Shown: positions 97 through 21,452 of the stretch, piece after piece
Position numbering within the stretch: position 1 is the first letter of the stretch
Layout of the letters: each line of letters opens with the position of its first letter
Origin: Candidatus Diapherotrites archaeon CG08_land_8_20_14_0_20_30_16
GTDB taxonomy: Archaea > Iainarchaeota > Iainarchaeia > Iainarchaeales > 0-14-0-20-30-16
Length of the DNA stretch: 24,590 bases
Direction of reading: 5' to 3'
Assembly: GCA_002779075.1 (NCBI GenBank)
Contig: PEXK01000015.1
Coordinates: forward strand, 1 to 24,590
Notes under the pieces: generated by a model
What the model was told of the DNA's origin: nothing
What the model saw: the letters and a program-made list of their open reading frames with translations, nothing else
Database searches by the model: none
Position numbers and translations under genes: made by a program

Positions 97-597
97 ATGC
101 CATTACCAACAACTCATGTTTTAATTAATTTGGCAATATTTTTTCCTTTCAGGAAAAAATTGGGCAAGTATTGGTTTGTTTTTGCTGCTTTTTCTGGATT
201 AGTTTTGGATTTTGATTTTATTTTAGAATTAATTCAAAACTTTTTTGGTTTCAACAATTTTTTTCTAACTCACGGAGGAATAATACATAGCCTTGGTTTT
301 GTTTTATTATTAGGAATGATTTCAACAATTATTTATTATAAAAATAGAGAATATGGGAAATATGGATTTATACTTTCTGCGGGTTGTTTTGTACATTTGA
401 TTTTAGATTTCGTTCTTGGCGGTGGACAATATTCTTTGATGTTGTTATATCCTTTTGTAGAAACACAATTTAGATTACATTTGCTAGAACCCTATACACT
501 TTTAAACATATATGAAATATTAGATGCTGTTCTAATTATGTGTGCCCTAGCGACTCTTTTTTATTTGCAAAGAAAAAAGAAATCTCGACTTATTTAA
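97..597 (+). CDS. Membrane-bound metal-dependent hydrolase-like protein (DUF457/YdjM-like), polytopic
   Basis: 166-aa hydrophobic ORF. His/Asp residues are placed as in the YdjM/DUF457 family: N-terminal TTH, LDFDF, THGGIIHS, HLILDF. A GGTGAT Shine-Dalgarno-like element lies just upstream. Confidence 0.45.
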   Translation: MPLPTTHVLINLAIFFPFRKKLGKYWFVFAAFSGLVLDFDFILELIQNFFGFNNFFLTHGGIIHSLGFVLLLGMISTIIYYKNREYGKYGFILSAGCFVHLILDFVLGGGQYSLMLLYPFVETQFRLHLLEPYTLLNIYEILDAVLIMCALATLFYLQRKKKSRLI

Positions 598-2164
598 TTG
601 CCTGCAATTGTTTATCTATTTGTTTTTCTGATTCCAATCTTTCAAAATCATAATCTTTTAAATCAATAAATTTCATGGGTTCTAAAAGATTTGGATGTAC
701 TTTTAAAATTTGTCTATACATTTCTTGACACATTTTTCTATAATCAGGATGCCCTTGCCTTATTGTTCTTAACTCCAATAAATGATAAGCTTCTCTTAAA
801 TTAAATTTTACATACCATCGCAAATTGTACGCAAAAGGCACACAATATTGTGCTTTTTCTTTTGATATTTTTGTCAGGTCCAAATATACTTTATTTGCAT
901 TATCTAATGCTTTTTTATATTTTTTATCATAACCTGCAAGTATTAAATCTTTGGGTACATCATAACCAAAATGTGTTGTTAATAATTGTCTTTCTTGCGT
1001 CAAAATTCTGTGCCTATGTAAGTCTCTATAGGCCCCAAAATTTCCAACTAACTCAAAAGTGTAATCTGTATTTTCAAAAGCTCTAAACGGTTTGTGTCTT
1101 CTGTTTGTTCTAACACCACAATATTCTCCCAACAATTTTTTTTTCTCGTCAACAGGCATTTGTTTAATGATTTTTATTGCATCCTTTAAAGACAAACCAG
1201 ATTTTAAATAATATATCTTTGATAATACTTTTATTTCTGCATCTTTATCATAATGCAACAATGTAATTCTTTTCTTGTTTTTTGTTATGCCATCAACCGA
1301 AGGATATTTTATTGTTTTTAAATAATCAATAATAGCTTGTCCAAATTCGCCTTTACTTCTTTTCACAAATGATGGAAATACTTTATTTAATTCAGTATAT
1401 GTCTGGTTTCCTAAGTTTTTTATTTCATCTAAATTAGAGGCTTGCATTTTTGTTAATAAATATTCAAATGCTCTACCATTACCAAACAAACCAACATTTG
1501 TCAATGTTGATGCAGGAAGCAACCCTCTAATAGTATCACAAGTTTTTGCTCTCAGCACTGCATCAAAAGCTCTTTCTGATAAGTTCTCTGTGTTTGGCAA
1601 TTTCTTAAGAAAATAATCTCGCATAGGGCCCATCAATTCAGAATATGTATCAAATAAAAAATCCATTGCATTAACATAATCCTCGCTATGTTTTGAAGCC
1701 ATTATTTCTGCATCTCTGTAATAATTGTATTTTCCATTTACTTTTTCATTAAAATAAACATATCTGCTTGATTTTTCTAAAGGATTTATGCCAATTCTCG
1801 AGTCTTCTACAAACTTTGTTGCCAAATTAGAAATATTTTCTAAAGCAATATGGCAACCGCCTAACTCAGCAACAGAATCATCTCCAAACTGGCCTAAAAT
1901 GCGATCATAAAACTCTTCTGCTTTTTTTATTGCTAATAATTGATTATCAATATTTTTTACATCACCAACAATATTCTTGAATTCGTTATCCTGACTGTTG
2001 AAAAAATCAGATAAAAATAAACTGCGCAAATCCTTGCCAGATCTGCTGTATCTTGCAAATAAAGTTCCTTTTACTACTTCTGGCAAGTTAATCAATGCAA
2101 AAACATCTTCTGTAGTATTTGTAAAAAAATAGGATAATATTTTTTGTTCTTCATCATTAAACAT
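590..2164 (-). CDS. thyX: FAD-dependent thymidylate synthase ThyX, long (~525 aa) form
   Basis: ThyX-type RHRxx[ST] signature (RDLHRHRILTQERQ) and an E-x-S-x-RY-like element (EKSSRYVYF). The size matches the long ThyX class (chlamydial type, from memory). Its start overlaps the 3' end of the SHMT gene. The start is probably ATG 2164, with GGGGGAG 6 nt upstream; the ORF track starts at 2179. Confidence 0.6.
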   Translation of the reverse strand: MFNDEEQKILSYFFTNTTEDVFALINLPEVVKGTLFARYSRSGKDLRSLFLSDFFNSQDNEFKNIVGDVKNIDNQLLAIKKAEEFYDRILGQFGDDSVAELGGCHIALENISNLATKFVEDSRIGINPLEKSSRYVYFNEKVNGKYNYYRDAEIMASKHSEDYVNAMDFLFDTYSELMGPMRDYFLKKLPNTENLSERAFDAVLRAKTCDTIRGLLPASTLTNVGLFGNGRAFEYLLTKMQASNLDEIKNLGNQTYTELNKVFPSFVKRSKGEFGQAIIDYLKTIKYPSVDGITKNKKRITLLHYDKDAEIKVLSKIYYLKSGLSLKDAIKIIKQMPVDEKKKLLGEYCGVRTNRRHKPFRAFENTDYTFELVGNFGAYRDLHRHRILTQERQLLTTHFGYDVPKDLILAGYDKKYKKALDNANKVYLDLTKISKEKAQYCVPFAYNLRWYVKFNLREAYHLLELRTIRQGHPDYRKMCQEMYRQILKVHPNLLEPMKFIDLKDYDFERLESEKQIDKQLQAIK

Positions 2165-3317
2165 TAGAATCTCCCCCATTCAAAAGTATTTTCTTAAACT
2201 TATCTGCAAGATTAGAAAAATCAGATTTTGTATTTCCACGCAAAGTCATTTCTTGCACACCCATTCTAATTCCACTAGGATTAATAACACTTTTATCCCA
2301 AGGCAAAGAATTTTTGTTAACTATAATATTATTCTTTTCTAATTCGTTTGCAACTTGCTGCCCGCCACCTTGTTTAGTAACATCTAATATTACTTGATGA
2401 CTCTCTGTGAAGCCCTGCTTTTCGCAACAAACATTAAAACCTTGGGCAGATAATTCTTGTGCAAAATGTTTTGCATTTTCAGTAATCCTTTTTGAATAAT
2501 CTTTATATTTCTCATCTAATAATATTGCAGTCATCAACAAAACAGGTAAACGATGCAGATGATGATTCGAAACAATCCCGGGAAACACAAATTTATTAAA
2601 TTCATTAAAGTCTTTTGATAAAATTATTCCGCCTTGCGGACCAGGAAATGTTTTGTGTGTTGATGCTGTGACTATATCTGCACCTTCTTCAAAAGGTTTT
2701 TGAAATAATCCTTGATAAAGTAACCCAAAAACATGTGCTGAATCATACACTATTTTTAATTCTGGAAACTCCTGCCTTATTTCTTTTATGGGTTCAGGAA
2801 ATAAAAACATAGACTTGCCCAAAACAATAAAATCAGGATCAAATTCTTTAATTATTTTTATACTTTCGTCAATGTCAGAAACAAAAGGATTTTCTTGAGA
2901 CTGGGAAAAATTTTTAATATCATAATTTAAAATTCTGCCCAAAGTGCCAATTTTATTGTGAGTTATATGCCCACCAGAAGGCAAAGAATTTGTTATTACT
3001 TTGCCTGTTTTTCTTAAACTAGAAAATACTGCTAAATTTGCAATAGCTCCAGAAATCGGTCGAGTATCACAAACATTTACATTGAATTTTTTCTTAAAAT
3101 AATCCTGACATTCTTGTTCAATACAATCAATATATTTTGTACCATTATAATACCTATTAAAGGGCAGACCTTCAGCATATCTGTGCATAAAATCATTTGA
3201 ATAAAAAGGCTCTACTTCTGTTAGCATTGTGTTTTCAGATGCAATTAAATTGACACAAGAATCTCGCCATACATTTTGTTTGGAAATGAGTTCTTTTACA
3301 TCCTCAAAAGTCAACAA
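2157..3317 (-). CDS. glyA: Serine hydroxymethyltransferase (short archaeal-type SHMT)
   Basis: PLP-lysine motif TASTHKTFPGPQGG, N-terminal NLIASEN, and SGAIANLAV. The ORF-track start GTG 3326 is probably the Shine-Dalgarno element itself (GGTGAT). The likely start is TTG 3317, 4 nt downstream of it. Confidence 0.85.
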   Translation of the reverse strand: MLTFEDVKELISKQNVWRDSCVNLIASENTMLTEVEPFYSNDFMHRYAEGLPFNRYYNGTKYIDCIEQECQDYFKKKFNVNVCDTRPISGAIANLAVFSSLRKTGKVITNSLPSGGHITHNKIGTLGRILNYDIKNFSQSQENPFVSDIDESIKIIKEFDPDFIVLGKSMFLFPEPIKEIRQEFPELKIVYDSAHVFGLLYQGLFQKPFEEGADIVTASTHKTFPGPQGGIILSKDFNEFNKFVFPGIVSNHHLHRLPVLLMTAILLDEKYKDYSKRITENAKHFAQELSAQGFNVCCEKQGFTESHQVILDVTKQGGGQQVANELEKNNIIVNKNSLPWDKSVINPSGIRMGVQEMTLRGNTKSDFSNLADKFKKILLNGGDSNV

Positions 3318-5077: not shown

Positions 5078-6109
5078 ATGATGATTGGATTGACTGGGCC
5101 TAATTGTAGTGGAAAGGGAGAAATAGCAAATATATTGAAAGAAAAAAGATACAAATATTATTCTTGCAGCGATGTAATTAGAGAAGAAGCAGAAAAAAGA
5201 AAATTAGAAAAAACAAGAGAAAATTTAATTGCGATAGGTAACGAATTGAGAGAAAAATTAGGGCCAAATGTTTTAGCAAAAAAACTTTTGGAAAAAATAA
5301 AAGAGGATAGAAAAAAAGGGCAAAAAGATTTTATCGTTGATAGTATAAGAAACCCAAATGAAGTTGAAGAATTAAAAACAGATAACGAATTTAGTTTGTT
5401 AGGGATAAACGCACCAATAGAATTAAGATATGAAAGAGCAAAAGCACGTGGGCGAGTTGAAAATGTAAACAATTTTGATGATTTTAAACAAATGGATGAA
5501 AAAGAAAATTCATCAAATCCAAATGCACAACAATTGAATGTTGTTTACAAAATGGCTGACAAGTATGTATTTAATGATAGCACATTAGAAGATCTGAAAA
5601 AGAGATTAGATTTTGCTTTAAAATATGAAAAAAAAGAAAGGCCATCATGGGCTGAATATTTCATGAAAATTACATCAGTTGTTGCAGAAAGGAGCACGTG
5701 TTTAAGGCACAATGTTGGAGCAATTATTGTCAAAAATAAAAGATTGTTAACCACAGGTTATAATGGTGCTGTAAGAGGCAATGAGGATTGCCTTAAATTA
5801 GGATGCAAAAAAGATGAATTGGGCCTTGAATCAGGTTTTGGTTCTGAAGAATGCAGGGCAGTTCATGCAGAACAAAATGCAATTATCCAGGGAGCTCTTC
5901 ATGGAATAAATATAGAAGGGGCCACATTATATTGCACAACAATTCCTTGCAGAATGTGTGCAAAGGAAATTGTAAATGCAGGAATTAAAGAAGTAATAAC
6001 TTATAGTGACTATGCTGGAGCAAAGGGTTCAATAGAGTTTCTACAAAATGCAGGAGTAAATTTTAGAAAAATTCCAAGACCTAATAACAGTATTAATTTT
6101 AAGGATTAA
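5078..6109 (+). CDS. Fusion protein: N-terminal P-loop nucleotide kinase-like domain plus C-terminal dCMP deaminase (ComEB/dCTD type)
   Basis: The N-terminus has Walker A GLTGPNCSGKG with an adenylate/dephospho-CoA-kinase-like layout. The C-terminus has cytidine/deoxycytidylate deaminase zinc motifs HAEQNAI and PCRMCAKEI, preceded by CLRHNVGAIIV. Confidence 0.8.
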   Translation: MMIGLTGPNCSGKGEIANILKEKRYKYYSCSDVIREEAEKRKLEKTRENLIAIGNELREKLGPNVLAKKLLEKIKEDRKKGQKDFIVDSIRNPNEVEELKTDNEFSLLGINAPIELRYERAKARGRVENVNNFDDFKQMDEKENSSNPNAQQLNVVYKMADKYVFNDSTLEDLKKRLDFALKYEKKERPSWAEYFMKITSVVAERSTCLRHNVGAIIVKNKRLLTTGYNGAVRGNEDCLKLGCKKDELGLESGFGSEECRAVHAEQNAIIQGALHGINIEGATLYCTTIPCRMCAKEIVNAGIKEVITYSDYAGAKGSIEFLQNAGVNFRKIPRPNNSINFKD

Positions 6110-6127: not shown

Positions 6128-7684
6128 TCAAAATAATTTCCTTTGTCTTTGTTTTTCTTCTTTCTTTGGGTGTTGGGCCTTTCTTTCTTCTTTCTTTTCT
6201 TTGATGCCACCTTGTGTTTCTAACTTTGGGTTTGAAACACTTTGTAAAAGATTTTCTTCTTTAGAAGACAATATTCTACACTTCTTTTCTTTTTCTTTTT
6301 GGTATTTCTTTTCTGATGTAGGTTCTTTTCTTTCTTTTAATTCTAATTTTTTGTGTTTTATTTCTATTTCTTCTTTCTTTGGCACCACCTTTCTTTCTTC
6401 TTTTTCTTTATTCTCTTTTTCTTGCTCTATATCTTTTGTTCTTGGTTCTTCTTTCAAAGAAGAACTATGTGGGGTGTTAAAGAATTTGAACTTAAAAAAA
6501 TCTTGTAAAAAGAGGAGATCTTCATCTGGCAAATGTTCTAACAAGTATTGTGTGAAACCCCCTTTATTGAAAAAGAATCTGTACAAAAAAATCTCCCCAG
6601 ATATTTTTGAAACTGAACCACGAAATACTTTGGATAATATCTGTGCTGCTTTTTTGTTGCGCGAATATTCGCTTAATTCTCTTGTTTTCAATTTAATACT
6701 TTGAGGATAAGAAATCTTGAAAGTAAATTGATCTTTCTTGGGAATTAAACAAGGGCTTATAATGCCTAATGCCAAAAAATACTTGAAGAAAACCCAATTC
6801 TGTCTTGAATATATTCTGCTTTTATTCAAATCAGCCAATGCAGCAAAGCGATAAGCCTCTTTTAAATTATCTTTCTCGTAAAACAAGTGCAGATTTTCAG
6901 TAATCCAAGCAAATAACATATCGAAATCTAATTCTGTGGCATTTGCAATCTTTTGCGCTTCATTAAAAGTTTTTGCTTTAAACAAACCAATTATGGTTTT
7001 GAAAACATCTGCTTTTCTTTCTCTTCCTGAAAGCAATTCTAAATTCTTTTTTGTTATTCCAAAGGGACTTAAATAATTCATATCTAAAAAAATAGCTCTT
7101 AAATCACCAGAATTCATTTTTATTAAATCTTCTATTGCATCTTTCTCAAATTTTATTTTCTTTTGCAGGCACATTTGGGATATATAGTTAGTAAGTATAG
7201 TGGTGCTTGTGTGTCTCATTTCAATTATTTCGCACATTTCTCTTAACTGTGCCAATTTTCTGTCAGCATACATATTTGTTGCACAAAAAATAACTGGATT
7301 TCTTGATTCTTTGACGCATTTTAAAATAGTTTCAAAACCACCTTTGTCTTCTGCAACAAAAACATCAATATCATCAAAAAATAATAAATTCTTGTTTGAA
7401 AAAATACTTTTACTTTGTGAAACTGCGTGCAAAATGGGTTCTAACGTTTCTTTGTCTCGATCATCAGAAGGTGTTAATTCATAGAGGGTCAGATTGTGTT
7501 CTTTTGCAAATAATCTTACTAATATTGATTTTCCTATGCCTACTGGACCAACAAGCAAACAGGGTTTCTTGTGATTTTTATACCATGCATCTAATGATAA
7601 AATAGTACTCTTGTTAATACACTCTTGTAAACTCTTTGGTTCATAAGCATCCAAAACATACACAATATACCACCAATTAAGCAT
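6128..7684 (-). CDS. rfcL: Replication factor C (clamp loader) large subunit, with a long K/E-rich C-terminal tail
   Basis: AAA+ motifs are present: Walker A GPVGIGKS, Walker B LLFFDDIDVF, PVIFCATN. The N-terminal EPKSLQECI resembles the RFC box (YRPKxLxE). The roughly 110-aa Lys/Glu-rich tail ends ..KQRQRKLF*. Confidence 0.75.
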   Translation of the reverse strand: MLNWWYIVYVLDAYEPKSLQECINKSTILSLDAWYKNHKKPCLLVGPVGIGKSILVRLFAKEHNLTLYELTPSDDRDKETLEPILHAVSQSKSIFSNKNLLFFDDIDVFVAEDKGGFETILKCVKESRNPVIFCATNMYADRKLAQLREMCEIIEMRHTSTTILTNYISQMCLQKKIKFEKDAIEDLIKMNSGDLRAIFLDMNYLSPFGITKKNLELLSGRERKADVFKTIIGLFKAKTFNEAQKIANATELDFDMLFAWITENLHLFYEKDNLKEAYRFAALADLNKSRIYSRQNWVFFKYFLALGIISPCLIPKKDQFTFKISYPQSIKLKTRELSEYSRNKKAAQILSKVFRGSVSKISGEIFLYRFFFNKGGFTQYLLEHLPDEDLLFLQDFFKFKFFNTPHSSSLKEEPRTKDIEQEKENKEKEERKVVPKKEEIEIKHKKLELKERKEPTSEKKYQKEKEKKCRILSSKEENLLQSVSNPKLETQGGIKEKKEERKAQHPKKEEKQRQRKLF

Positions 7685-7716
7685 TGTTAAGCAATGCTAT
7701 TTTTGTTTTGAAATGC

Positions 7717-7956
7717 TTATATAAAGTCTTTTAATACTTGTTCTTTTGTTTCTGTTTTTTTTTCTTGAATTTCTTCTTCTGCAAGTTTGTCAAATGATTT
7801 CATTTCTTCTGATTTCTTATTTAATCTTGCTAATGTGTAAAGATATGCGTTAATTACACTGTCTAAATCTAATTTTCTTTTCAAACCTAAACGCGCAACT
7901 TCTTCAACATAAAGTTTAACTATTCCTAATGCTAAATCATCATTTTTTTCGTGCAT
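7717..7956 (-). CDS. Hypothetical small helical protein (79 aa)
   Basis: ORF with GGTGAT 4 nt upstream of ATG 7956; the ORF-track GTG 7965 lies inside that Shine-Dalgarno element. It is co-directional with rfcL and 32 nt upstream of it. I recognised no motif. Confidence 0.5.
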   Translation of the reverse strand: MHEKNDDLALGIVKLYVEEVARLGLKRKLDLDSVINAYLYTLARLNKKSEEMKSFDKLAEEEIQEKKTETKEQVLKDFI

Positions 7957-13266: not shown

Positions 13267-14067
13267 TCACTGCATATCGAGTGCTTCTTTTATTTTGGAG
13301 ATTTGTTGTAATGCACCTCTTTCTCCGGCTATTTTGTAACTTTTAGCTGTTTCTAAACTAAATAAATCTTTTACAAGTGTATATTTTGGTTTTATAATTA
13401 TTTTGTTAGGTATCTTTTTGAGTGTGGATTCGGTCATAGTATGTTCAAATATTCTGAAACATCTTTGTGCAGTTTCTAAATGGGTTGGTTGTTTTGCAAA
13501 TATTTTTTTTATTTTAGGATACAAATCAACACCCACTAATACTGAGGGGTTCTTTTTTTGTAAAATATCTAGTGGTATAGGGTCTAAAAAACCACCATCT
13601 ACAAGCCATCTACCCCAATAAAAAACAGGTTCAAATACTAAAGGTATTGATATGCTAGCTAATAATGCAGATCTCAAACTGCCTTTATTTAAATAAACTA
13701 TTTTTCCAGTTTCTAAATCTGCTGCAGTAATGCACAGGGGTGTTTTACAATCCTTAAATGTACTATCTCCAAAAATATCTTCGAAGTATAATTTAAATTT
13801 CCTAATTCTTTTTTTTCTTTCTAATACAGTTTCAATATTAAACAAACTAAAATTATTTTCCTTAATAAATGATTTTGCATCTTCTTCTAATTTTTTCAAA
13901 TCTCTGTATAATGAATAATGACAACCAATAACTGCGCCAATACTAGATCCAGAAATATAATCAATTGGTATTTTGTATTTCTCCAAAACGCTTAGAACGC
14001 CTAAATGTGCTAAACCAAAAGATCCGCCAGCCCCTAATGCCAAACCTAATTTCTTTTTATACTGCAT
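13267..14067 (-). CDS. Patatin-like phospholipase
   Basis: Oxyanion motif GAGGSFG, nucleophile elbow GSSIGA (GxSxG), and catalytic Asp in VDGGFLDPIP. Confidence 0.85.
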   Translation of the reverse strand: MQYKKKLGLALGAGGSFGLAHLGVLSVLEKYKIPIDYISGSSIGAVIGCHYSLYRDLKKLEEDAKSFIKENNFSLFNIETVLERKKRIRKFKLYFEDIFGDSTFKDCKTPLCITAADLETGKIVYLNKGSLRSALLASISIPLVFEPVFYWGRWLVDGGFLDPIPLDILQKKNPSVLVGVDLYPKIKKIFAKQPTHLETAQRCFRIFEHTMTESTLKKIPNKIIIKPKYTLVKDLFSLETAKSYKIAGERGALQQISKIKEALDMQ

Positions 14068-14091: not shown

Positions 14092-14517
14092 TTATTCAAA
14101 TATTCCAAACCAATACGCCCCAATATTCAAAGTGTTTTTTATGTTCATCAACTTCACTACATTTTCTTTTGGAGTCATATAAAATATTTTACTATTGTTC
14201 CAACTAAAAACCAAAATCCAGTCTACCCCTTTTGCTTCTTTTTCTGTTTGTTCAAACCATTCAGAAATTCTGCTTTTTTTATTGACTAAATCTGTAAGCG
14301 TGATTGGTTGTTTTGTTTTTTTACATTCAACAACAATGTCTTTATATTGCTGGGCCTCTGTGAAAACATCTCCAAAGAATCTTTTGTCTTCACTTCTGTT
14401 AATTGTTGAGAAAGCACCAGACATGGGAACTCTTTTCCATTCAACATTTGTTAGCTTAGAACAAATCTTTGCTACTTGCCTTTCAAAACCCTTGCCCTTA
14501 ATTATGCTATTAACCAA
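14092..14517 (-). CDS. hjc: Hjc-type PD-(D/E)xK Holliday junction resolvase-like nuclease
   Basis: The motif order matches archaeal Hjc: KGKGFERQVAKI (compare KGSxxER), RVPMSGA (compare RAPASGS), GDVF (the Asp), and IVVECKK (ExK). It starts 12 nt after the mutL stop. Confidence 0.6.
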   Translation of the reverse strand: MVNSIIKGKGFERQVAKICSKLTNVEWKRVPMSGAFSTINRSEDKRFFGDVFTEAQQYKDIVVECKKTKQPITLTDLVNKKSRISEWFEQTEKEAKGVDWILVFSWNNSKIFYMTPKENVVKLMNIKNTLNIGAYWFGIFE

Positions 14518-14529
14518 AATCTCATACTC

Positions 14530-16275
14530 CTATTTTCTTCCTATTTTGTGATAAATTTCATTTTTTGTTAATTCAATAATTATTGGCCTTCCGTGTGGGC
14601 AAGTATATGGATTTTTTGTAACAAACAAACCATCAATAATTCTTTTCATTTCAAACAACCCCAAAGAGGTGTCTGCTTTTATTGCGCTTTTACATGCAAG
14701 AGTTGTTAAGATACTAACTCTTAGGTTATTTATCAAATTATCTATTTTTAGTTTTCCTTGGTTTTCAACATTGTTTGCAATTTCTAAAAGCATTTCTTTT
14801 AATTCTTGCTTGTCTGGAATTCTACCCAAAACAACAGGTATGCTTCGCAATAATATTGAATCTTTTAAAACATCAAAATCAAAACCAAAAGTTAAAAAGA
14901 CTTTTGCATATTCTGTAAAAATTTCCAAATATTCTAATTCAAAATCTAAACTTAATGGCAAAATTAATTGTTGTGATTTTATTGTACCGTCTCTTTCAAA
15001 AATTATAGAAAGATTTTCAAAGTGTATCCTTTCGTCTGCAACATGCTGATCAATAATAAGTAGGCTTTCGTTTTCATCTTCTACTAAAATATATGTATTG
15101 TTGTACTGGCCCAAAATTTTGTATTTTGATTTTGTTTCTATATTATTTGATGCAAAAGAAAATGTTGTTTGTGTTTGTTTTTCTTTTTGAGGAATATTAA
15201 TTTCGTTTTTGTCTTTTAATATATGGGTCAAATTATTTTCTTGACCTAATAAAGAAATTATTTTTGTTCTTTTTTCATCAGTATTGGAATCTATTCCTTT
15301 TTCCAAAGAGTTTTTCAAAGCGCCATAAACAGGATAAAAAAATGTGTTATCATCTTTTACTCGCACTTCTAACTTTTGGGGATGAACATTAACATCGATC
15401 ACTTTGGGCGAGATGTTCAAAAAAACAAAAACATTTGGTTTTCTTCCTTTTGGAACTCTTGTTTCAAAAGCTTTTATTATTGCAAAGGCTATTGTTCTAT
15501 TTGTTATTGGTCTATTATTTACATAAAAAATTTGTTTTGTATCTCCAAAAAGTTCTTTTAAGTCTGTTGGGTTTGTATAATATACTTGCGCATCAACAAT
15601 AGGGTCTTTAGATTGGCCCTCAAACACATCCAACCCAAACACTTCCTGAATTCTTTGTTTGATTGTGTCACACTTTTTATACTCAAAGACTAATTTAGTA
15701 TCGTTATAAAGTTTGAATTCTATCTTTATATTCGGAATGGTAATAGATTTTAACCAGTCACAAATCTTCTTGAATTCGTAACTGTCACTTTTTAAAAATT
15801 TCTGACGTGCAGGAATTGTGTAAAATAAATTGTAAATATTTATTGTTGTACCTTGATATTTTGTTGTTGGCACAAACTCTTTTTGTTTTCCTTCTTCTAA
15901 AACTAATTTATAAGAATAGGAATCAGTTTTTGTTCCTGAAATTATTTCCATTTTAGAAACTTCAGCAACTGTTGCAAGAGCTTCTCCTCTGAAACCATAA
16001 CTAAAAATAGAATAAATATCATTGATACTTTGTATTTTAGAGGTTGCGTGCCTTTTTGTACAAAGTAAAATATCTTCTTTATCCATTCCTTGTCCATTGT
16101 CTATTACTGTAATCTGTTTTTTGCCACCATCTTTTATTTTTACTGTAATTTCTGTTGCCCCAGCATCTAGGGAATTTTCAACAAGTTCTTTTACAACTGA
16201 TGCTGGTCTTTCAATAACTTCGCCAGCAGCTATTTTAGTAATTGTTGATTCATCAAGCAGTATAATCTTGGGCAT
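14530..16275 (-). CDS. mutL: DNA mismatch repair protein MutL, endonuclease-proficient type
   Basis: The GHKL ATPase N-terminus has IAAGEVIERPASVVKELVENSLDAG, DNGQGM and GFRGEAL. The C-terminal endonuclease motifs are DQHVADERIHFE (DQHAxxExxxxE, 15016-15051), ACKSAIKA and CPHGRP. Confidence 0.9.
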   Translation of the reverse strand: MPKIILLDESTITKIAAGEVIERPASVVKELVENSLDAGATEITVKIKDGGKKQITVIDNGQGMDKEDILLCTKRHATSKIQSINDIYSIFSYGFRGEALATVAEVSKMEIISGTKTDSYSYKLVLEEGKQKEFVPTTKYQGTTINIYNLFYTIPARQKFLKSDSYEFKKICDWLKSITIPNIKIEFKLYNDTKLVFEYKKCDTIKQRIQEVFGLDVFEGQSKDPIVDAQVYYTNPTDLKELFGDTKQIFYVNNRPITNRTIAFAIIKAFETRVPKGRKPNVFVFLNISPKVIDVNVHPQKLEVRVKDDNTFFYPVYGALKNSLEKGIDSNTDEKRTKIISLLGQENNLTHILKDKNEINIPQKEKQTQTTFSFASNNIETKSKYKILGQYNNTYILVEDENESLLIIDQHVADERIHFENLSIIFERDGTIKSQQLILPLSLDFELEYLEIFTEYAKVFLTFGFDFDVLKDSILLRSIPVVLGRIPDKQELKEMLLEIANNVENQGKLKIDNLINNLRVSILTTLACKSAIKADTSLGLFEMKRIIDGLFVTKNPYTCPHGRPIIIELTKNEIYHKIGRK

Positions 16276-16526: not shown

Positions 16527-17012
16527 TTAAAATTCAACAACTCTGTTTGACGCTGTATTCAAAAGATCTTTTGTTACATGATCATTTGCCAATTGATTTA
16601 ACATTTTAGCAATTCTTATAGCATCAGAATTTCCTTGTATCGCCTGACTATAAACAATTTCTGCAACTATCCTCTGAACTTTTGGTTCGCCACTTGCTGT
16701 GAAAATTCCATAAAGTGTACTTGGTAGTCTTTTACTTTTTGCCAATACTTCATCTTCTTGCATTTTTTCTTTTAAATTATTTAATGTGTCTAATAAAGTA
16801 GACAAATTAATTTTTCTTGCTAAATAATCTCTATGTGTTCGAACTAAAGCTTCTTCAACATCTTGTCTATGCTCAGCATTTATTGTTTGTTCTGTTCTCA
16901 TACCTATTTGCCCTCTTTCTGTTCTTACTGGTTTTAGTTCTTTAAGTTTAAGTTCTTGATTATTTTTTTCATTTTTTGAAAAAAAACTTTTCAATCCATT
17001 CATTATGCTCAT
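16527..17012 (-). CDS. Unknown helical protein, paralog B of a tandem pair encoded between mutS and mutL
   Basis: The start is probably ATG 17012 (GGGTGAT upstream), 4 nt after the stop of paralog A. It aligns by eye with paralog A: an N-terminal LKSFFSK versus IKFFKRF, LLDTLNNLKEKM versus IINNLERLKRAL, QGNSDAIRIAKMLNQL versus ERGNAGAIFLAKRLLKA, and NTASNRVV versus SAASQKVV. Confidence 0.6.
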   Translation of the reverse strand: MSIMNGLKSFFSKNEKNNQELKLKELKPVRTERGQIGMRTEQTINAEHRQDVEEALVRTHRDYLARKINLSTLLDTLNNLKEKMQEDEVLAKSKRLPSTLYGIFTASGEPKVQRIVAEIVYSQAIQGNSDAIRIAKMLNQLANDHVTKDLLNTASNRVVEF

Positions 17013-17016
17013 GATA

Positions 17017-17484
17017 TCACCCTTTATCCTCATCTATTATTTTTAACTTTACTGGTTCTCTTATTTCAAGATTTACAACTTTTTGACTAGCTGCTGAAAT
17101 CAATACAGCCTTTATTTTCGGGTTCAATTTATCTTGGGCTTTTAAAAGTCTCTTTGCCAAAAATATTGCTCCGGCATTTCCTCTTTCTGCTAAAATCAAA
17201 AGAACATCACAAATTTTCCTTTTTAACAGATTATCTATCGTGCATTCGAAAAGCAAACCTAGCTTTGAGATTGTATTTTGGTCTACGTGCAAATCTTCAT
17301 GTATTGCTAATGCTCTTTTTAATCGTTCTAGATTGTTTATTATTTCAACAGTTCTGAAATCAGATCTAATGTGTTGATTATAAAGCCCATCAAATTCAGA
17401 TCTTAGATCTTCTACCAATGCTTTTTTAGATGTTGCATTTGGTTCTTTCTTTCTGGCAAACCTTTTGAAAAATTTAATTACCAT
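17017..17484 (-). CDS. Unknown helical protein, paralog A of a tandem pair encoded between mutS and mutL
   Basis: ATG 17484 lies 4 nt after the mutS stop (TAA 17489-17491). 155 aa, predicted helical by eye. The similarity to the downstream ORF is listed in that entry. Confidence 0.6.
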   Translation of the reverse strand: MVIKFFKRFARKKEPNATSKKALVEDLRSEFDGLYNQHIRSDFRTVEIINNLERLKRALAIHEDLHVDQNTISKLGLLFECTIDNLLKRKICDVLLILAERGNAGAIFLAKRLLKAQDKLNPKIKAVLISAASQKVVNLEIREPVKLKIIDEDKG

Positions 17485-17488
17485 AATT

Positions 17489-20400
17489 TTACCCGAACAA
17501 TGTCTTTTGTGGCAATTTGTTTTCTTTCTGTTGAGTTCTCTTCTCGTTTCTTGATTCTTCTTTTGGCAAAGAAGAATTGTACAGATTAGCAGTATTGTTG
17601 TTTAAATCCAAACTAGATTCTATTTCTTTTGCTCTTACAATTATAGAGTCTGGCAAACCCGCAAGCTTTGCAACACAAATACCGTAACTTTTGTCTATAC
17701 CTCCAGGTTCTATTTTCCTTAAAAATACTAAATTCCCATCAATTTCCTTTGCAGAAATGTGATAATTTTTTATCCCACCCAGCTGATTTTCGAGTTGGTT
17801 TAATTGATGATAATGTGTTGCAAACAATGTTTTTGAATGTATTTTTGTATGAATGTGTTCCAACACAGCCCATGCCAAGCTCATACCATCGTAAGTTGAT
17901 GTTCCTCTTCCTATTTCATCTAAAATCAAAAAACTATTTTCTGTTGCGTTGTTTAATATGTTTGATGTTTCTACCATCTCAACCATAAAAGTACTCAAAC
18001 CTAATGCTAAATTATCGCTGGCACCAATTCTTGTAAATAATTTATCAATAACACAAATGTCTGCAGAATCGCAAGGAACAAAAGAACCTATGTGTGCTAA
18101 TAAAATAATCAATGCATTTTGTCGTAAAAAGGTTGAATTGTGATTTATTAATCCATTAGCAACAAATGAATGTGTACTCGAAATTGAAAAATCATAAACC
18201 TCTTTTAATTTTGCTGATTTTTTAATTATGTCTATAGAATCATAAAAATAATTGTTATTAAATATTACTTTTAATTCCTCGCAATTAACATTATTTAACT
18301 CACAATAAGTAATTAGCTCTTTTAATTTTTTATGAGAGATGTTGCGTTTTGTTGGCAAATAAGTATAAAATATTGAATTAATGTTTTTAACTTTTTTAAT
18401 GGCTATTAATTTATTTGTTTTTGTAACAATTCTATTTTGAAGTTCTTTAAGAATGTTTTTCATGTAAGGTATACCATAATTAGGCATTCTTAATTTAGAT
18501 GCTAAGTTTTGTCTAACTTTTTTCCGTTTTAATTTAAACCCTATTTTTTTATGAAACATTATCGCATTTTCGCCAAAAATAGTTACCCTATAATTTTTAT
18601 TTCGATTTGTTTTTTTCTCTTTAAGCGATGAAATTATACCAAAATTAAGTAAGATTGTTTGAACTTGTTTGGCTAATTTTAATGAAGAAGTAGATACGCT
18701 CGCATTACCATATTTATTATCTGCTTCGCCATCAGTATCAAACAACCCTTTGAGAAATTCTCTAACAATGTTTTTGGGTGCACGTAATATGCTGTAGGGT
18801 ATTTCCTTTCTTAAAGCATTTACATAATCTAAACCCAATTCTTTAAAGAAAGACCTTATTTTAATACTGCCAATATAATGGTCCACGCCATTTTTCTTAG
18901 TCTTTACAATACAACCAAAATATTTGACAATAATTTTATTAAAACTAGTAATGATTTGTTTATCTATATTCGACAAATAGATATAGTTTTTGTAAGTTAA
19001 AGTCCCATCACCAATAAGTAAGCCGATTATATATGCGAGATCTTTATTAAGACTGGTAGGCAATTTGTAATTAATTACCCGTCCTCCATATGTATACTTT
19101 GATGCGTCTTTAATTATTTGGGCAGATATTTTTGTAGTTTTGCCCCAAAGATTAATTTTTCTTTTTATTATTATATAATCTGTATTTTTTATTTCTCCTA
19201 ATTTTCTCCAAATCTCTGCGCCCTCTTTATCCCTTACCAATATTGGATGATTATGTGTTCCTTCAATTGTGTATCCAAATTTAGTTACTAATTTGATTGT
19301 TGGCTTTTTTCCATCATAGTAAAAATGGGTTGTTTCTTTATTTTCATTTATTCCGTTAACAATTAATTTAAATGGACAAAATTGTCCCGGCTTTATCTTT
19401 ACAGGTTTAAACTGTTCTATTGGGATTAATCCCATCTCACTAAATATTATTGATTCTCCGACCAAACATTTCCCGCTCATATTTGGGCCTGTTATTATTA
19501 ATGTTGTTTCATTATTATCCATATACAAATCATTAGGAATGAATTTTTCGAAATCTATTTTTTCAATAACTGGATGTCTTCCATTTTTTATAAATATCTC
19601 GCCTTTTTTGTTTAAAATTGGCTTCACATATCTGTTTTTTGCTGCAACAACACTTAAAGATGCGTAAAAATCTATTTGTGCAATTTTGTTTGCGAGTTCA
19701 TATATTTCTTCTATGTGTTCTTTTGCCTCTTCTAAGATGTGAGAAAATAATTCTATTTCCAAATTACGACTTTTTTCTTCAGATCCCAAAACACTGTTCT
19801 CTAAATTTTTTAGTTCTTCTGTAATTAACCGTTCTGTATTAACCAAGGTCTGCCTTCTAACAAAATAAGGTGGCAATTCTTTTGCTTGAGATTTGGGCAA
19901 TTCAAAAAAGAAGCCAAATATTTTGTTATACCCTATTCGCAAAGTTTTAATGCCTGTGTTTTCCTTTTCTTTTATTTCTATCTTCAACAAAACATCTTTC
20001 AAATTTGTTTTTATCTCCAATAATTCATCTAACTCTTTATTGAAGCCTTTTCTTAGGAAATTTCCGTCTCGATAATTTACTGGAGGGTCATCTATTATTG
20101 CCTCAGATATTAATTTCGTAAAAGACAATAGATCCTTTGGCACATCAAAAAACAATTCTTCTAAATTACACGAATGTAAGAAATCAGAAAGAGGCAAAGT
20201 TGAGTTTATTGATTGTTCCAAAGAAATTAAATCTCTTGGAGATGCATTTCCATACATTATTTTTGAACCCAATCTTTCTAAATCCCAAATATTTGATAAA
20301 AATCCCGAAATATTAAAGGAAAGATTTGATTTTGTTATGCGCTCAACAATATTTAATCTTGAATTTATTTCTTCAAGGGTTTTCAAAGGCAAAATAATGT

Positions 20401-21316
20401 TTTTTTTCAAAAGTCTAGAGCCCATAGGTGTTTTTGTAAAATCTAAAACTGATAACAAAGTGTTTTTTTGATTACCATCTGAATTTTGTAAAAGCTCTAA
20501 ATTCTTTATGGTATGGGAATCTAATGCAACATATTTCTCTTTATCAAAAAATCTTATTTTTTTAACGTTTTTTAATTTGGATTTTTGAGTATGTTCGATA
20601 TATTGTAATAACGCTCCCACTGCACCAACAATTTCTATTTGGTTGTCCAAACCAAATGATTTCAAAGAAATTATATTGAAAGTGTCCTTTATCTTTTCTT
20701 CCCCAAAATCTTTGGCATAATAAATAAATGGTTGCTCATTAATTGTTGCTTGTAACGTGCGTGAGATAATATCTCTTAAATTAGTATCAAAAGAATCAGG
20801 AATCAAAATTTCTGCAGGATTTATCATTAACAAATCTGTTATTACTGATTCGTTAGTTGCGTTAAATACTTGAAATTCTCCTGTAGAAATATCTAAAAAT
20901 GCTATTCCTATTTTTTCATCTTTAAATAAAGAGAGTAAATAATTATTTGTTTTTGAATCTAAAAAATCATCTTCTATTATTGTTCCTGGAGTAACTGTTC
21001 TCACTACTTCGCGCTTTACAACTCTGCCTTTGGCTAATTTGGGATCTTCCATCTGTTCAATAATTGTTACTGTTTTTCCTGCAATAATTAGCTTTTTTAG
21101 ATAATGGTTTAATGAATGATGAGGAATGCCTGCCAAAGGCACCTTTGCTTTTGTGCCTCGTTTTGTTAAGGTTATGTTAAGAGTCTCTGATACTGTTTTT
21201 GCGTCCTCGAAAAAGCATTCATAAAAATCGCCCATTCTAAACAGCAAAACTGAATTTGGATACTGTTTTTTTATGTTCAAAAATTGTTTCAATGCAGGAG
21301 TAAGCTCTTCGGACAT
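17489..21316 (-). CDS. mutS: DNA mismatch repair protein MutS (MutS1 type), interrupted in-frame by an intein
   Basis: The mismatch-recognition motif GDFYECFFEDA (Phe-x-Glu) is at the N-terminus. The Walker A is split as TGPNMSGK|intein|STFLRQ. Downstream are ILDEIGRGTSTYDG and LFATHYH. The exteins total about 830 aa, a normal MutS size. The likely start is ATG 21316 (MSEELTP); the track uses TTG 21328. The C-terminus is ..PQKTLFG*. Confidence 0.9.
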   Translation of the reverse strand: MSEELTPALKQFLNIKKQYPNSVLLFRMGDFYECFFEDAKTVSETLNITLTKRGTKAKVPLAGIPHHSLNHYLKKLIIAGKTVTIIEQMEDPKLAKGRVVKREVVRTVTPGTIIEDDFLDSKTNNYLLSLFKDEKIGIAFLDISTGEFQVFNATNESVITDLLMINPAEILIPDSFDTNLRDIISRTLQATINEQPFIYYAKDFGEEKIKDTFNIISLKSFGLDNQIEIVGAVGALLQYIEHTQKSKLKNVKKIRFFDKEKYVALDSHTIKNLELLQNSDGNQKNTLLSVLDFTKTPMGSRLLKKNIILPLKTLEEINSRLNIVERITKSNLSFNISGFLSNIWDLERLGSKIMYGNASPRDLISLEQSINSTLPLSDFLHSCNLEELFFDVPKDLLSFTKLISEAIIDDPPVNYRDGNFLRKGFNKELDELLEIKTNLKDVLLKIEIKEKENTGIKTLRIGYNKIFGFFFELPKSQAKELPPYFVRRQTLVNTERLITEELKNLENSVLGSEEKSRNLEIELFSHILEEAKEHIEEIYELANKIAQIDFYASLSVVAAKNRYVKPILNKKGEIFIKNGRHPVIEKIDFEKFIPNDLYMDNNETTLIITGPNMSGKCLVGESIIFSEMGLIPIEQFKPVKIKPGQFCPFKLIVNGINENKETTHFYYDGKKPTIKLVTKFGYTIEGTHNHPILVRDKEGAEIWRKLGEIKNTDYIIIKRKINLWGKTTKISAQIIKDASKYTYGGRVINYKLPTSLNKDLAYIIGLLIGDGTLTYKNYIYLSNIDKQIITSFNKIIVKYFGCIVKTKKNGVDHYIGSIKIRSFFKELGLDYVNALRKEIPYSILRAPKNIVREFLKGLFDTDGEADNKYGNASVSTSSLKLAKQVQTILLNFGIISSLKEKKTNRNKNYRVTIFGENAIMFHKKIGFKLKRKKVRQNLASKLRMPNYGIPYMKNILKELQNRIVTKTNKLIAIKKVKNINSIFYTYLPTKRNISHKKLKELITYCELNNVNCEELKVIFNNNYFYDSIDIIKKSAKLKEVYDFSISSTHSFVANGLINHNSTFLRQNALIILLAHIGSFVPCDSADICVIDKLFTRIGASDNLALGLSTFMVEMVETSNILNNATENSFLILDEIGRGTSTYDGMSLAWAVLEHIHTKIHSKTLFATHYHQLNQLENQLGGIKNYHISAKEIDGNLVFLRKIEPGGIDKSYGICVAKLAGLPDSIIVRAKEIESSLDLNNNTANLYNSSLPKEESRNEKRTQQKENKLPQKTLFG
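18137..19468 (-). mobile_element. Intein (444 codons) with a LAGLIDADG homing endonuclease domain, inserted in the MutS P-loop
   Basis: Cys1 (TGT, 19466-19468) starts block A, CLVGESIIF. Block B is GTHNHPILV (TxxH). The LAGLIDADG motifs are LAYIIGLLIGDGTL (about 19001-19042) and REFLKGLFDTDGEA (about 18723-18764). The terminal block is VYDFSISSTHSFVANGLINHN, ending His-Asn (AAT 18137-18139) and followed by the +1 Ser (18134-18136). Removing it restores GPNMSGKSTFLRQ. Confidence 0.9.
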
Positions 21317-21452
21317 ATAATCACGCAAGTTTTATAAATACTTATATATAAAAGATATATAACTAATTGTTACATTAGACGTACTTATTTGTATATTGTT
21401 TAATTTCATAAATAGTATAAAATAGGGAAGAAACAGTATTTAAGGTGTTATT

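Follow-up and report, generated by a model that had tools for sequence, protein, structure and literature searches.

An intein in the ATP-binding loop of MutS1 from a Diapherotrites archaeon and its scattered alleles in archaea and bacteria

Results and discussion

Contig PEXK01000015.1 (assembly GCA_002779075.1) of Candidatus Diapherotrites archaeon CG08_land_8_20_14_0_20_30_16, a DPANN archaeon, was analysed from position 1 to 24,590, a stretch in the following called the window. It holds a mutS gene in which 444 additional codons interrupt the ATP-binding loop (P-loop, Walker A motif) of the encoded mismatch repair protein. This locus raises the question of what the insert is, whether an intact MutS can still arise from the gene, and by which route the element came into this archaeon. 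An initial annotation, made from the sequence alone, had proposed a LAGLIDADG intein at positions 18137-19468 which splits Walker A between Lys and Ser; its boundaries proved exact, with the 444-codon insert lying on the minus strand. That the insert is an intein we regard as practically certain. The complete interpretation, in which a canonical class 1 intein with a two-motif LAGLIDADG endonuclease sits in the P-loop of a MutS1 protein, is spliced out and was acquired horizontally, is in our view highly probable.

The insert and its host gene

The mutS gene forms one uninterrupted open reading frame (ORF), 17489..21328 (-), which in the ORF list starts with a TTG at 21328 and comprises 1279 aa, while the ATG at 21316 (1275 aa) is the mutS start used in other assemblies. 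Within it, the minus strand of 18137-19468 gives 444 open codons, with Cys as the first, His-Asn at the end and in frame with mutS. The translation of the plus strand of the same segment is full of stops, hence a reading on that strand was rejected and mutS is assigned to the minus strand. The features of the gene are listed here from its 5' to its 3' end; conservation refers to an alignment of 14 same-site MutS inteins, which are 41–65% identical to the intein of the window.

17489..21316 (-): mutS precursor gene, 1275 aa from the ATG at 21316, stop codon at 17489-17491
19469..21316 (-): N-extein, MutS domains I-IV and the start of domain V, ending with GPNMSGK
21218-21232 (-): mismatch-binding GDFYE motif (Phe-x-Glu) in the N-extein
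19469..19489 (-): first half of Walker A, GPNMSGK, with Lys620 as the -1 residue of the intein
18137..19468 (-): intein, 444 aa, HINT splicing domain into which a LAGLIDADG homing endonuclease is nested, plus a helical accessory region
19466..19468 (-): Cys1, block A, predicted nucleophile of the N-S acyl shift, invariant in 14 of 14 MutS inteins
19235..19276 (-): block B, GYTIEGTHNHPILV (GTHNH), T71-x-x-H74, H74 invariant and T71 at least 90% conserved
18998..19039 (-): LAGLIDADG motif 1 (block C), LAYIIGLLIGDGTL, residues 144-157, catalytic Asp154 invariant
18725..18766 (-): LAGLIDADG motif 2 (block E), VREFLKGLFDTDGE, residues 235-248, Asp244 and the catalytic Asp246 both invariant
18164..18202 (-): block F, EVYDFSISSTHSF, D426 invariant and H433 at least 90% conserved
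18137..18163 (-): block G, VANGLINHN, penultimate His443 and terminal Asn444, both invariant
17492..18136 (-): C-extein, remainder of MutS domain V, beginning with Ser+1 (TCA)
18119-18136 (-): STFLRQ at the start of the C-extein, Ser+1 codon TCA at 18134-18136
17897-17929 (-): Walker B, LILDEIGRGTS, in the C-extein

The host protein is a MutS1 of the bacterial type. Outside the insert it is matched by the Pfam families MutS_I-V (domains I-V), and with the NCBIfam MutS equivalog NF003810 it reaches 936 bits, where 480 is the cut-off. The insert sits between Lys620 and Ser1065 of Walker A, with the junctions LIITGPNMSGK/CLVGES...GLINHN/STFLRQNA (slashes mark the points of insertion here and below); at the DNA level the mutS flanks, joined at the insertion site, read ACAGGCCCAAATATGAGCGGGAAA/TCAACCTTTTTACGACAAAATGCA. 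Walker A is contiguous only after the insert has been removed, which yields GPNMSGKSTFLRQ. That excision would restore a regular MutS P-loop had been claimed initially, and indeed the spliced motif matches the six intein-free MutS homologues in our alignment A1 as well as 80 of 80 metagenomic MutS genes (pattern G.N..GK[ST]...[RK]Q). In A1 the residues G614, N616, G619 and K620 are invariant, P615 and M617 nearly so. Aligned with MutS1 sequences, as the initial annotation had suggested, the spliced exteins keep the Walker A consensus together with every MutS-invariant residue, including GDFYE, Walker B and FATHYH.

All the intein elements that had been named beforehand (Cys1, TxxH, two LAGLIDADG motifs, His-Asn, Ser+1) could be located in both the translation and the alignment. 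Invariant among the 14 inteins are C1, H74, D154, D244, D246, D426, H443 and N444; C389 is a second invariant Cys of the family. With the HINT fold, Cys1, blocks B and F, His-Asn and Ser+1, the complete set of sequence features of a class 1 intein is present. Profile searches, in part proposed as a check by the initial annotation, gave the same picture. Pfam Intein_splicing matched at E=3.4e-16 (59.9 bits, cut-off 35.8), LAGLIDADG_3 at E=5.3e-23 in two stretches, and Hom_end with 23.4 bits (cut-off 21.1). The NCBIfam model intein_Cterm, with a cut-off of 15.6 bits, scored 21.4 bits (E=2.2e-4) in the whole MutS and 18.6 bits (E=1.7e-3) in the intein alone, and the insert was also hit by NCBIfam models of intein-containing DnaB, GyrA, RNA polymerase A'' and V-ATPase. 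The Pfam and NCBIfam matches of insert and host are far beyond chance. A split intein or a fractured gene was considered as well and rejected, as both the mutS of the window and a corresponding locus in a Lokiarchaeota genome (see below) are each one continuous frame.

Predicted fold and structural relatives

An AlphaFold2 model of the intein, computed from the alignment of the 14 inteins, reached a pLDDT of 91.3 and a pTM of 0.91, with no segment below 50 and beta-rich termini; it is confident across the whole endonuclease domain. In a Foldseek comparison with the PDB the best match was the V-ATPase intein TliVMA of Thermococcus litoralis (7qss, E=2e-26, TM 0.72), followed by PhoVMA, PI-PfuI, PI-PkoII (2cw7), PI-SceI and I-DmoI. 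The entire chain aligns to 7qss, 1dq3 and 1vde. Residues 1-107 superimpose on the Mxe GyrA mini-intein with a root mean square deviation of 2.0. For the middle part the counterparts are I-DmoI and I-Tsp061I (TM relative to target 0.57-0.73), as well as the endonuclease domains in PI-PfuI, PI-PkoII (2cw7) and PI-SceI. A profile search of the PDB sequences likewise returned 7qss, at E=1.5e-35.

TliVMA is thus the best match among solved structures in both structure and sequence. It shares the architecture of HINT, LAGLIDADG endonuclease and accessory domain, has a similar length (429 aa, compared with 444 aa here) and also resides in the P-loop of its host ATPase. This host, however, is V-ATPase subunit A (VMA-b site), which outside the P-loop is not homologous to the ABC-type ATPase of MutS, and since the identity of the two inteins is only about 20%, they are not allelic. 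According to Beyer et al. 2022 (PMC8966425), TliVMA, located in its host's P-loop, has an active endonuclease, whereas PhoVMA is degenerate and has lost one catalytic Asp together with a helix turn. The intein of the window keeps both catalytic Asp residues, as does the active TliVMA, and by the distinction between these two it would be predicted to encode an active enzyme.

Annotation of the gene in public data

In the NCBI record the window mutS appears as PIU22518.1 (COT14_00875), a 'hypothetical protein' of 677 aa which begins at Met603 (17489-19522 (-)). This coding sequence (CDS) leaves out MutS domains I-IV and is labelled neither as MutS nor as an intein. The same MutS, with 0-3 substitutions, is also found on three other contigs (JGI, ENA and Logan data), four in all; P0001 and P0178 are identical 1275-aa proteins from other contigs. 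Because the same protein was recovered on four contigs from several sources, the sequence of mutS with its intein is not an assembly artefact.

A parallel case is the Lokiarchaeota metagenome-assembled genome (MAG) RDOG01000006.1 (locus L241, 1108-4983). There the called CDS, P0122, has the Met in GPNMAGK as its start, four residues ahead of the intein, and directly upstream of its start lie 631 in-frame codons for MutS domains I-IV for which no gene was called. The Lokiarchaeota mutS is a single continuous frame despite its 660-aa 'hypothetical' CDS. CDS starts like that of P0122 were also seen in P0121 and P0124 (Chloroflexota, Anaerolineae). Intein-bearing mutS genes appear to be cut short systematically in gene calling, and the 677-aa CDS of the window is an annotation artefact as it is in the Lokiarchaeota MAG. 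As both records checked have a truncated CDS (677 and 660 aa) labelled hypothetical, surveys of mismatch repair in DPANN and Asgard archaea could take MutS to be defective or missing.

Inteins at the same site in other genomes

At least 16 other public prokaryotic genomes carry a MutS intein at this site. In a scan with one genome per GTDB species, the MutS junction GK/C...HN/ST was detected in 14 genomes from at least nine named groups. The archaea among them are a Woesearchaeota genome (PCXY01000003, same CG10 sample series) and two Promethearchaeia/Promethearchaeota; the bacteria are four Chloroflexota plus Anaerolineae and Herpetosiphonaceae, two Acidobacteriota, a Latescibacterota, an Armatimonadota and a MAG labelled 'Bacteroidota'. 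Beyond these 14 there is the Lokiarchaeota MAG already mentioned. When 5.8 billion proteins were searched with the whole protein, seven other 90% clusters, among them one from an Armatimonadota MAG, proved to contain MutS with an intein at this site. When the intein alone was used, extra MutS fragments came from Chloroflexota, Anaerolineae, Lokiarchaeota, Fimbriimonadales and Candidatus Marithioploca; none of the matches listed in this search exceeded 777 aa, and the full-length MutS matches were taken from the whole-protein search. An exhaustive HMMER search over 1.84 billion cluster representatives yielded about nine complete and six partial 50%-identity clusters which span both MutS junctions. 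The allele is rare yet widely scattered, and MutS both with and without an intein occurs at this site, the two states which the initial annotation had proposed to look for. What emerges is an allelic family with members in DPANN archaea, Asgard archaea and six or more bacterial phyla, and cellular MutS1 can be added to the P-loop proteins which homing inteins have invaded.

The same-site inteins from MAGs share with that of the window the insertion point GK/C...HN/ST, the domain architecture and the catalytic residues, at 36–65% intein identity, and judged by these features they are true alleles of it. Their host MutS proteins, in contrast, are only 37–46% identical to the window MutS. In the databases they are unnamed or carry labels such as 'hypothetical', 'MutS-related' or 'LAGLIDADG family homing endonuclease'. 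In one Acidobacteriota MAG (L010, JANPDZ010000679.1, positions 1-21 at the contig start) the junction reads PNMGGN/C, with Asn (AAT) in place of the Walker A Lys. The MutS of this genome would be without the essential Lys after splicing, which could reflect a gene in decay or a mistake in the sequence at the end of the contig.

Outside MutS, the nearest inteins are 29–38% identical and are located after the Walker A Lys (GK/C...HN/T) in terminase-like phrog_15503, PhoH, FtsH and others, while more distant relatives (at most 38% identity) occupy the same position behind the Walker A Lys in RecA and further ATPases and also occur in GyrA. Such a distribution agrees with what is known of related inteins spreading from one P-loop to another. 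The inteins in phrog_15503, PhoH and FtsH differ from the MutS family in their host genes and in the +1 residue, which is usually Thr instead of Ser, and they are too divergent to be recent donors. The closest of the non-MutS relatives (33–38%; P0134, P0136-P0147; L083, L090, L111) lie in phrog_15503, a family weakly similar to terminase large subunits. As several of the phrog_15503 relatives come from IMG/VR viral contigs, viruses are a plausible reservoir of this intein lineage. A scan of viral contigs returned zero MutS inteins; it gave only relatives of at most 35% identity, in terminase-like and helicase-like P-loops.

Probable horizontal acquisition and the target site

The eleven closest MutS proteins, with 66–72% extein identity, are all without intein. 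A syntenic intein-free locus is available in L080, with the order L15e, mutS, orf, mutL, PDDEXK_15, patatin and the empty site GGGAAA/AGTACT. The nearest MutS proteins which do bear the intein (P0002, P0003, P0004 and the Woesearchaeota locus L001) share only 43–46% identity in the extein vs 60–65% in the intein. Between distant hosts the intein has thus been kept better than the protein that carries it, and the nearest neighbours are intein-free; together this suggests an entry by homing from outside. The sequence comparison thus indicates that the intein entered the Diapherotrites lineage horizontally, from the allelic family of DPANN, Asgard archaea and several bacterial phyla.

The opposite relation was observed in the two pairs of intein-bearing MutS that are most closely related to each other: P0015/P0016 have 93% extein vs 75% intein identity, and L002/L004 have 80% vs 58%. 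Shared descent, with an intein diverging faster than its extein, would be the simplest reading for both. L002 belongs to the Chloroflexi genome CFX2 and L004 to the MAG labelled Bacteroidota; this discord may be due to transfer of mutS, to a mis-binned MAG or to two invasions by different inteins.

The DNA around the insertion site, ACNGGNCCNAAYATG..NGGNAAR/TCNACN, is highly conserved across bacteria and archaea, and this strong conservation makes homing across lineages plausible. The codon for Ser+1 is TCN in 16 of 16 occupied alleles (window, L001-L012, L014, L025, L241), compared with 58 TCN and 22 AGY among the empty alleles counted from L161-L240, the MutS genes of a metagenome scan (Fisher p=0.019, uncorrected for phylogeny); the empty site of L080 has AGT. 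This bias could stem from a target preference of the endonuclease, from immunity of AGY alleles or from co-conversion of the flanks.

Proposed splicing and homing, and alternative explanations

From these data the following course of events can be proposed. The gene would be translated as one precursor of 1275 aa, its P-loop split into GPNMSGK and STF, a step which can be read from the sequence itself. An N-S acyl shift at Cys1, helped by Thr71 and His74 of block B, would be followed by transesterification to Ser+1; Asn444 would then cyclise with the help of His443 and of Asp426 and His433 of block F, and an O-N shift would complete the reaction. Lys620 would thereby be ligated to Ser1065, giving a MutS of 831 aa whose ATP-binding loop, GPNMSGKSTF, is intact. 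The released intein would cut intein-free mutS alleles at the conserved P-loop DNA (ACNGGNCCNAAYATG...GGNAAR/TCNAC), and recombinational repair from the intein-bearing copy would convert the empty allele, which is homing. Because 444 residues interrupt the backbone of the P-loop, the precursor very probably has no ATPase activity before it is spliced. Mismatch repair in this organism is likely to depend on splicing, as had been stated initially, though a second mutS or another repair route may be encoded elsewhere in the genome.

Could the insert instead be a non-splicing relic, i.e. part of a mutS pseudogene with a degenerate mobile element, or an assembly chimera? In favour of this one may cite that NCBI annotates nothing but the 677-aa 'hypothetical protein' and that NCBIfam intein_Nterm stays under its curated cut-off (21.4 vs 24.5 bits). 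Yet the short CDS is the annotation artefact described above, the 1279-codon frame is uninterrupted, all splicing residues are intact, the exteins retain the MutS-invariant residues along with an equivalog score far beyond the cut-off, and the same sequence was assembled independently on four contigs. A non-splicing insert in the P-loop would furthermore be costly, as the retained MutS-invariant residues and the mutL gene next door show the host gene to be under constraint. We therefore regard a dead insert as very improbable, and consider it highly likely, judging from the residues and the modelled fold, that the intein is competent for splicing.

Less clear-cut is the state of the endonuclease. 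It may be inactive in an intein that still splices, which would then be a fixed, immobile passenger late in the homing cycle, kept since precise deletion is rare. With this agree the occupation of all four contigs from the sampled population, where the intein appears fixed, and the codon-position composition, which is fully host-like: the GC content at third codon positions (GC3) is 0.207 in the intein, inside the host range of 0.18-0.25. The low GC content of the intein's 3' half (0.21-0.25) was considered as a foreign signature and rejected on account of this host-like GC3; the low total GC is due to an amino-acid content rich in Lys, Ile and Asn. The homing-cycle model (PMC1654191, PMC8966425) predicts decay after fixation. 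On the other hand, both catalytic Asp residues are invariant across relatives of 41–65% identity from two domains of life, the endonuclease and its accessory regions are of full length, unlike PhoVMA with its lost Asp and helix turn, and the structural model is confident throughout this domain. Weighing these points, we hold an inactive endonuclease for possible but the less probable state, and give a still active one, as far as sequence allows a judgement, somewhat better than even chances.

Several observations weigh against our preferred reading of a spliced, horizontally acquired homing intein. Besides the intein_Nterm score, these are that we infer both splicing and DNA cleavage from intact residues and fold, and that decay of the endonuclease is to be expected once the element is fixed. 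The host-like GC3 means that the acquisition was not recent or that the donor was equally AT-rich. The closest relative of the intein is only 65% identical, so that there is no close pair for a dN/dS estimate, and among 5.8 billion proteins there was no intein-free allele above 72% identity. A metagenome scan with the spliced domain V likewise found only generic intein-free MutS of 47–59% identity and no close empty allele of the same species. The initial suggestion that the element may still be mobile therefore has to be divided. Mobility in the past is supported by the conflicting intein and extein identities, whereas present-day mobility is not supported, with four of four contigs occupied and no empty allele above 72%.

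A further possibility is that the intein was co-opted as a conditional-splicing switch which, in response to redox state, temperature, metal ions or DNA damage, might toggle mismatch repair and so create a transient mutator or hyper-recombination state. Conditional splicing has been reported for inteins in the P-loop or ATPase domain of RadA and DnaB (PMC4513877, PMC6195587 and PMC7360933), though this is an analogy only; Novikova et al. argue for selective retention of P-loop inteins (PMC4760082), and the second invariant Cys of the family, C389, could be seen in the same light. No feature of the sequence demands such a role, however. The closest relatives thrive without intein, and the patchy distribution across phyla as well as the conflict between intein and extein fit a selfish element, which makes a regulatory role unlikely. 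Even a shade more doubtful is the idea that the interruption of the P-loop is more than neutral parasitism, in that the ATPase-dead precursor and the cut in mutS together transiently lower mismatch repair and thereby aid homing between homeologous sequences, or else that conditional splicing provides an inducible mutator switch. Lowered repair might help homing because MutS blocks recombination between diverged sequences, and it would set in at the very time at which invasion of a diverged allele calls for homeologous recombination. If true, this would explain the spread of one intein family over mutS genes which are about 40% identical and belong to two domains of life, and Ser+1 codons of the TCN vs AGY type, at most a weak hint in this direction, would mark susceptible vs immune target sites.

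Relation to known MutS-family inteins

The initial annotation did not count MutS among the classical intein hosts and held a MutS intein allele in a reduced archaeal genome to be worth documenting. The novelty implied by this was overstated: apart from the at least 16 same-site genomes found here, inteins in MutS-family proteins have been described from Moumouvirus (PMC5784728) and from Anaeramoeba (PMC10710043). What stands is that no same-site prokaryotic MutS1 P-loop intein was found described in the literature searched. None of the papers searched has the phrase 'MutS intein', and the main text of the prokaryotic survey of Novikova et al. (PMC4760082) is without mention of MutS. MutS-family inteins are thus already known, and prokaryotic ones have been glimpsed. 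The element is an intein of the textbook type in an under-documented host gene, with an allelic family that is already in public data, un- or mis-annotated.

Green, Novikova and Belfort 2018 (PMC5784728) reported two MutS-like inteins in Moumouvirus, in MutS7-like proteins. These Mimiviridae elements are likewise LAGLIDADG inteins in a MutS-family protein, but their C-extein starts with SSISENL, and Walker A (NWCGKST) follows about 30 residues downstream of the insertion. They also belong to another lineage, similar to listed chlorovirus/phycodnavirus helicase inteins, with 26% identity to the window intein over 172 aa in the endonuclease core only. That the window intein is an allele of the Mimiviridae MutS7-like intein was therefore rejected, both for the site about 30 residues upstream of Walker A and for the identity of 26%.

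For eukaryotes, Sloan and co-authors (PMC12292046) know of no extant MutS with an intein. Gallot-Lavallee et al. 2023 (PMC10710043) list inteins in Msh2/3/4/5/6 of Anaeramoeba, of which that of Msh2 was grouped with several weakly resembling inteins from orthologous bacterial or archaeal sites or from Anaeramoeba itself; the same source documents intein transfer between the P-loops of unrelated proteins. The Anaeramoeba inteins resemble the one studied here in residing in MutS homologues, but have eukaryotic nuclear hosts, and most of the singleton inteins lack an endonuclease.

The MutS intein leaves the current understanding of inteins unchanged and has real, if modest, practical consequences. 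One is the availability of a compact, well-predicted LAGLIDADG enzyme directed at what is among the most conserved DNA stretches of mutS. In addition, the family is a naturally occurring test case for a possible effect of inteins in repair genes on their own spread or on the mutation rate of the host.

Gene neighbourhood

Among the other gene products of the window are archaeal L15e, the large subunit of RFC, an RNase P subunit of the Rpr2 type, SecDF, ThyX and SHMT. L15e, RFC large subunit and Rpr2 are in line with the origin from a Candidatus Diapherotrites MAG and with the reduced archaeal genome assumed in the initial annotation. Rfam and tRNA scans of the window gave no matches. Two features were noted at its left side:

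590-2179 (-): ThyX ORF, 529 aa, about twice the usual length, ThyX similarity only at residues ~314-499
5078-6109 (+): dCMP/cytidine deaminase fusion, N-terminal AAA_17/AAA_18 kinase-like P-loop domain, C-terminal deaminase

The first ~310 aa of the ThyX ORF had no family match. A second intein in this ORF (590-2179) was considered and rejected, as there is neither an intein signal nor a Cys...HN junction. With the deaminase fusion close to thyX and glyA, this region looks like a neighbourhood for thymidylate synthesis.

Downstream of mutS and in the same orientation follow:

16527-17484 (-): two small ORFs between mutS and mutL, 168 and 155 aa, no family match
14530..16275 (-): mutL, Pfam MutL_C, DNA_mis_repair and HATPase_c_3
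14092-14517 (-): PDDEXK_15 nuclease, after mutL
13267-14067 (-): patatin-like phospholipase, after PDDEXK_15

The 168-aa and 155-aa ORFs are weakly alike (26% over 90 aa, E=2e-4). L080 has a single ORF of 151 aa between mutS and mutL, without detectable similarity to the 155-aa ORF of the window, the only one of the two compared. In the intein-free L080 the PDDEXK_15 nuclease and the patatin follow mutL as well (6583-7802), which suggests that mutS, mutL, the nuclease and the patatin form a conserved cluster in these archaea.

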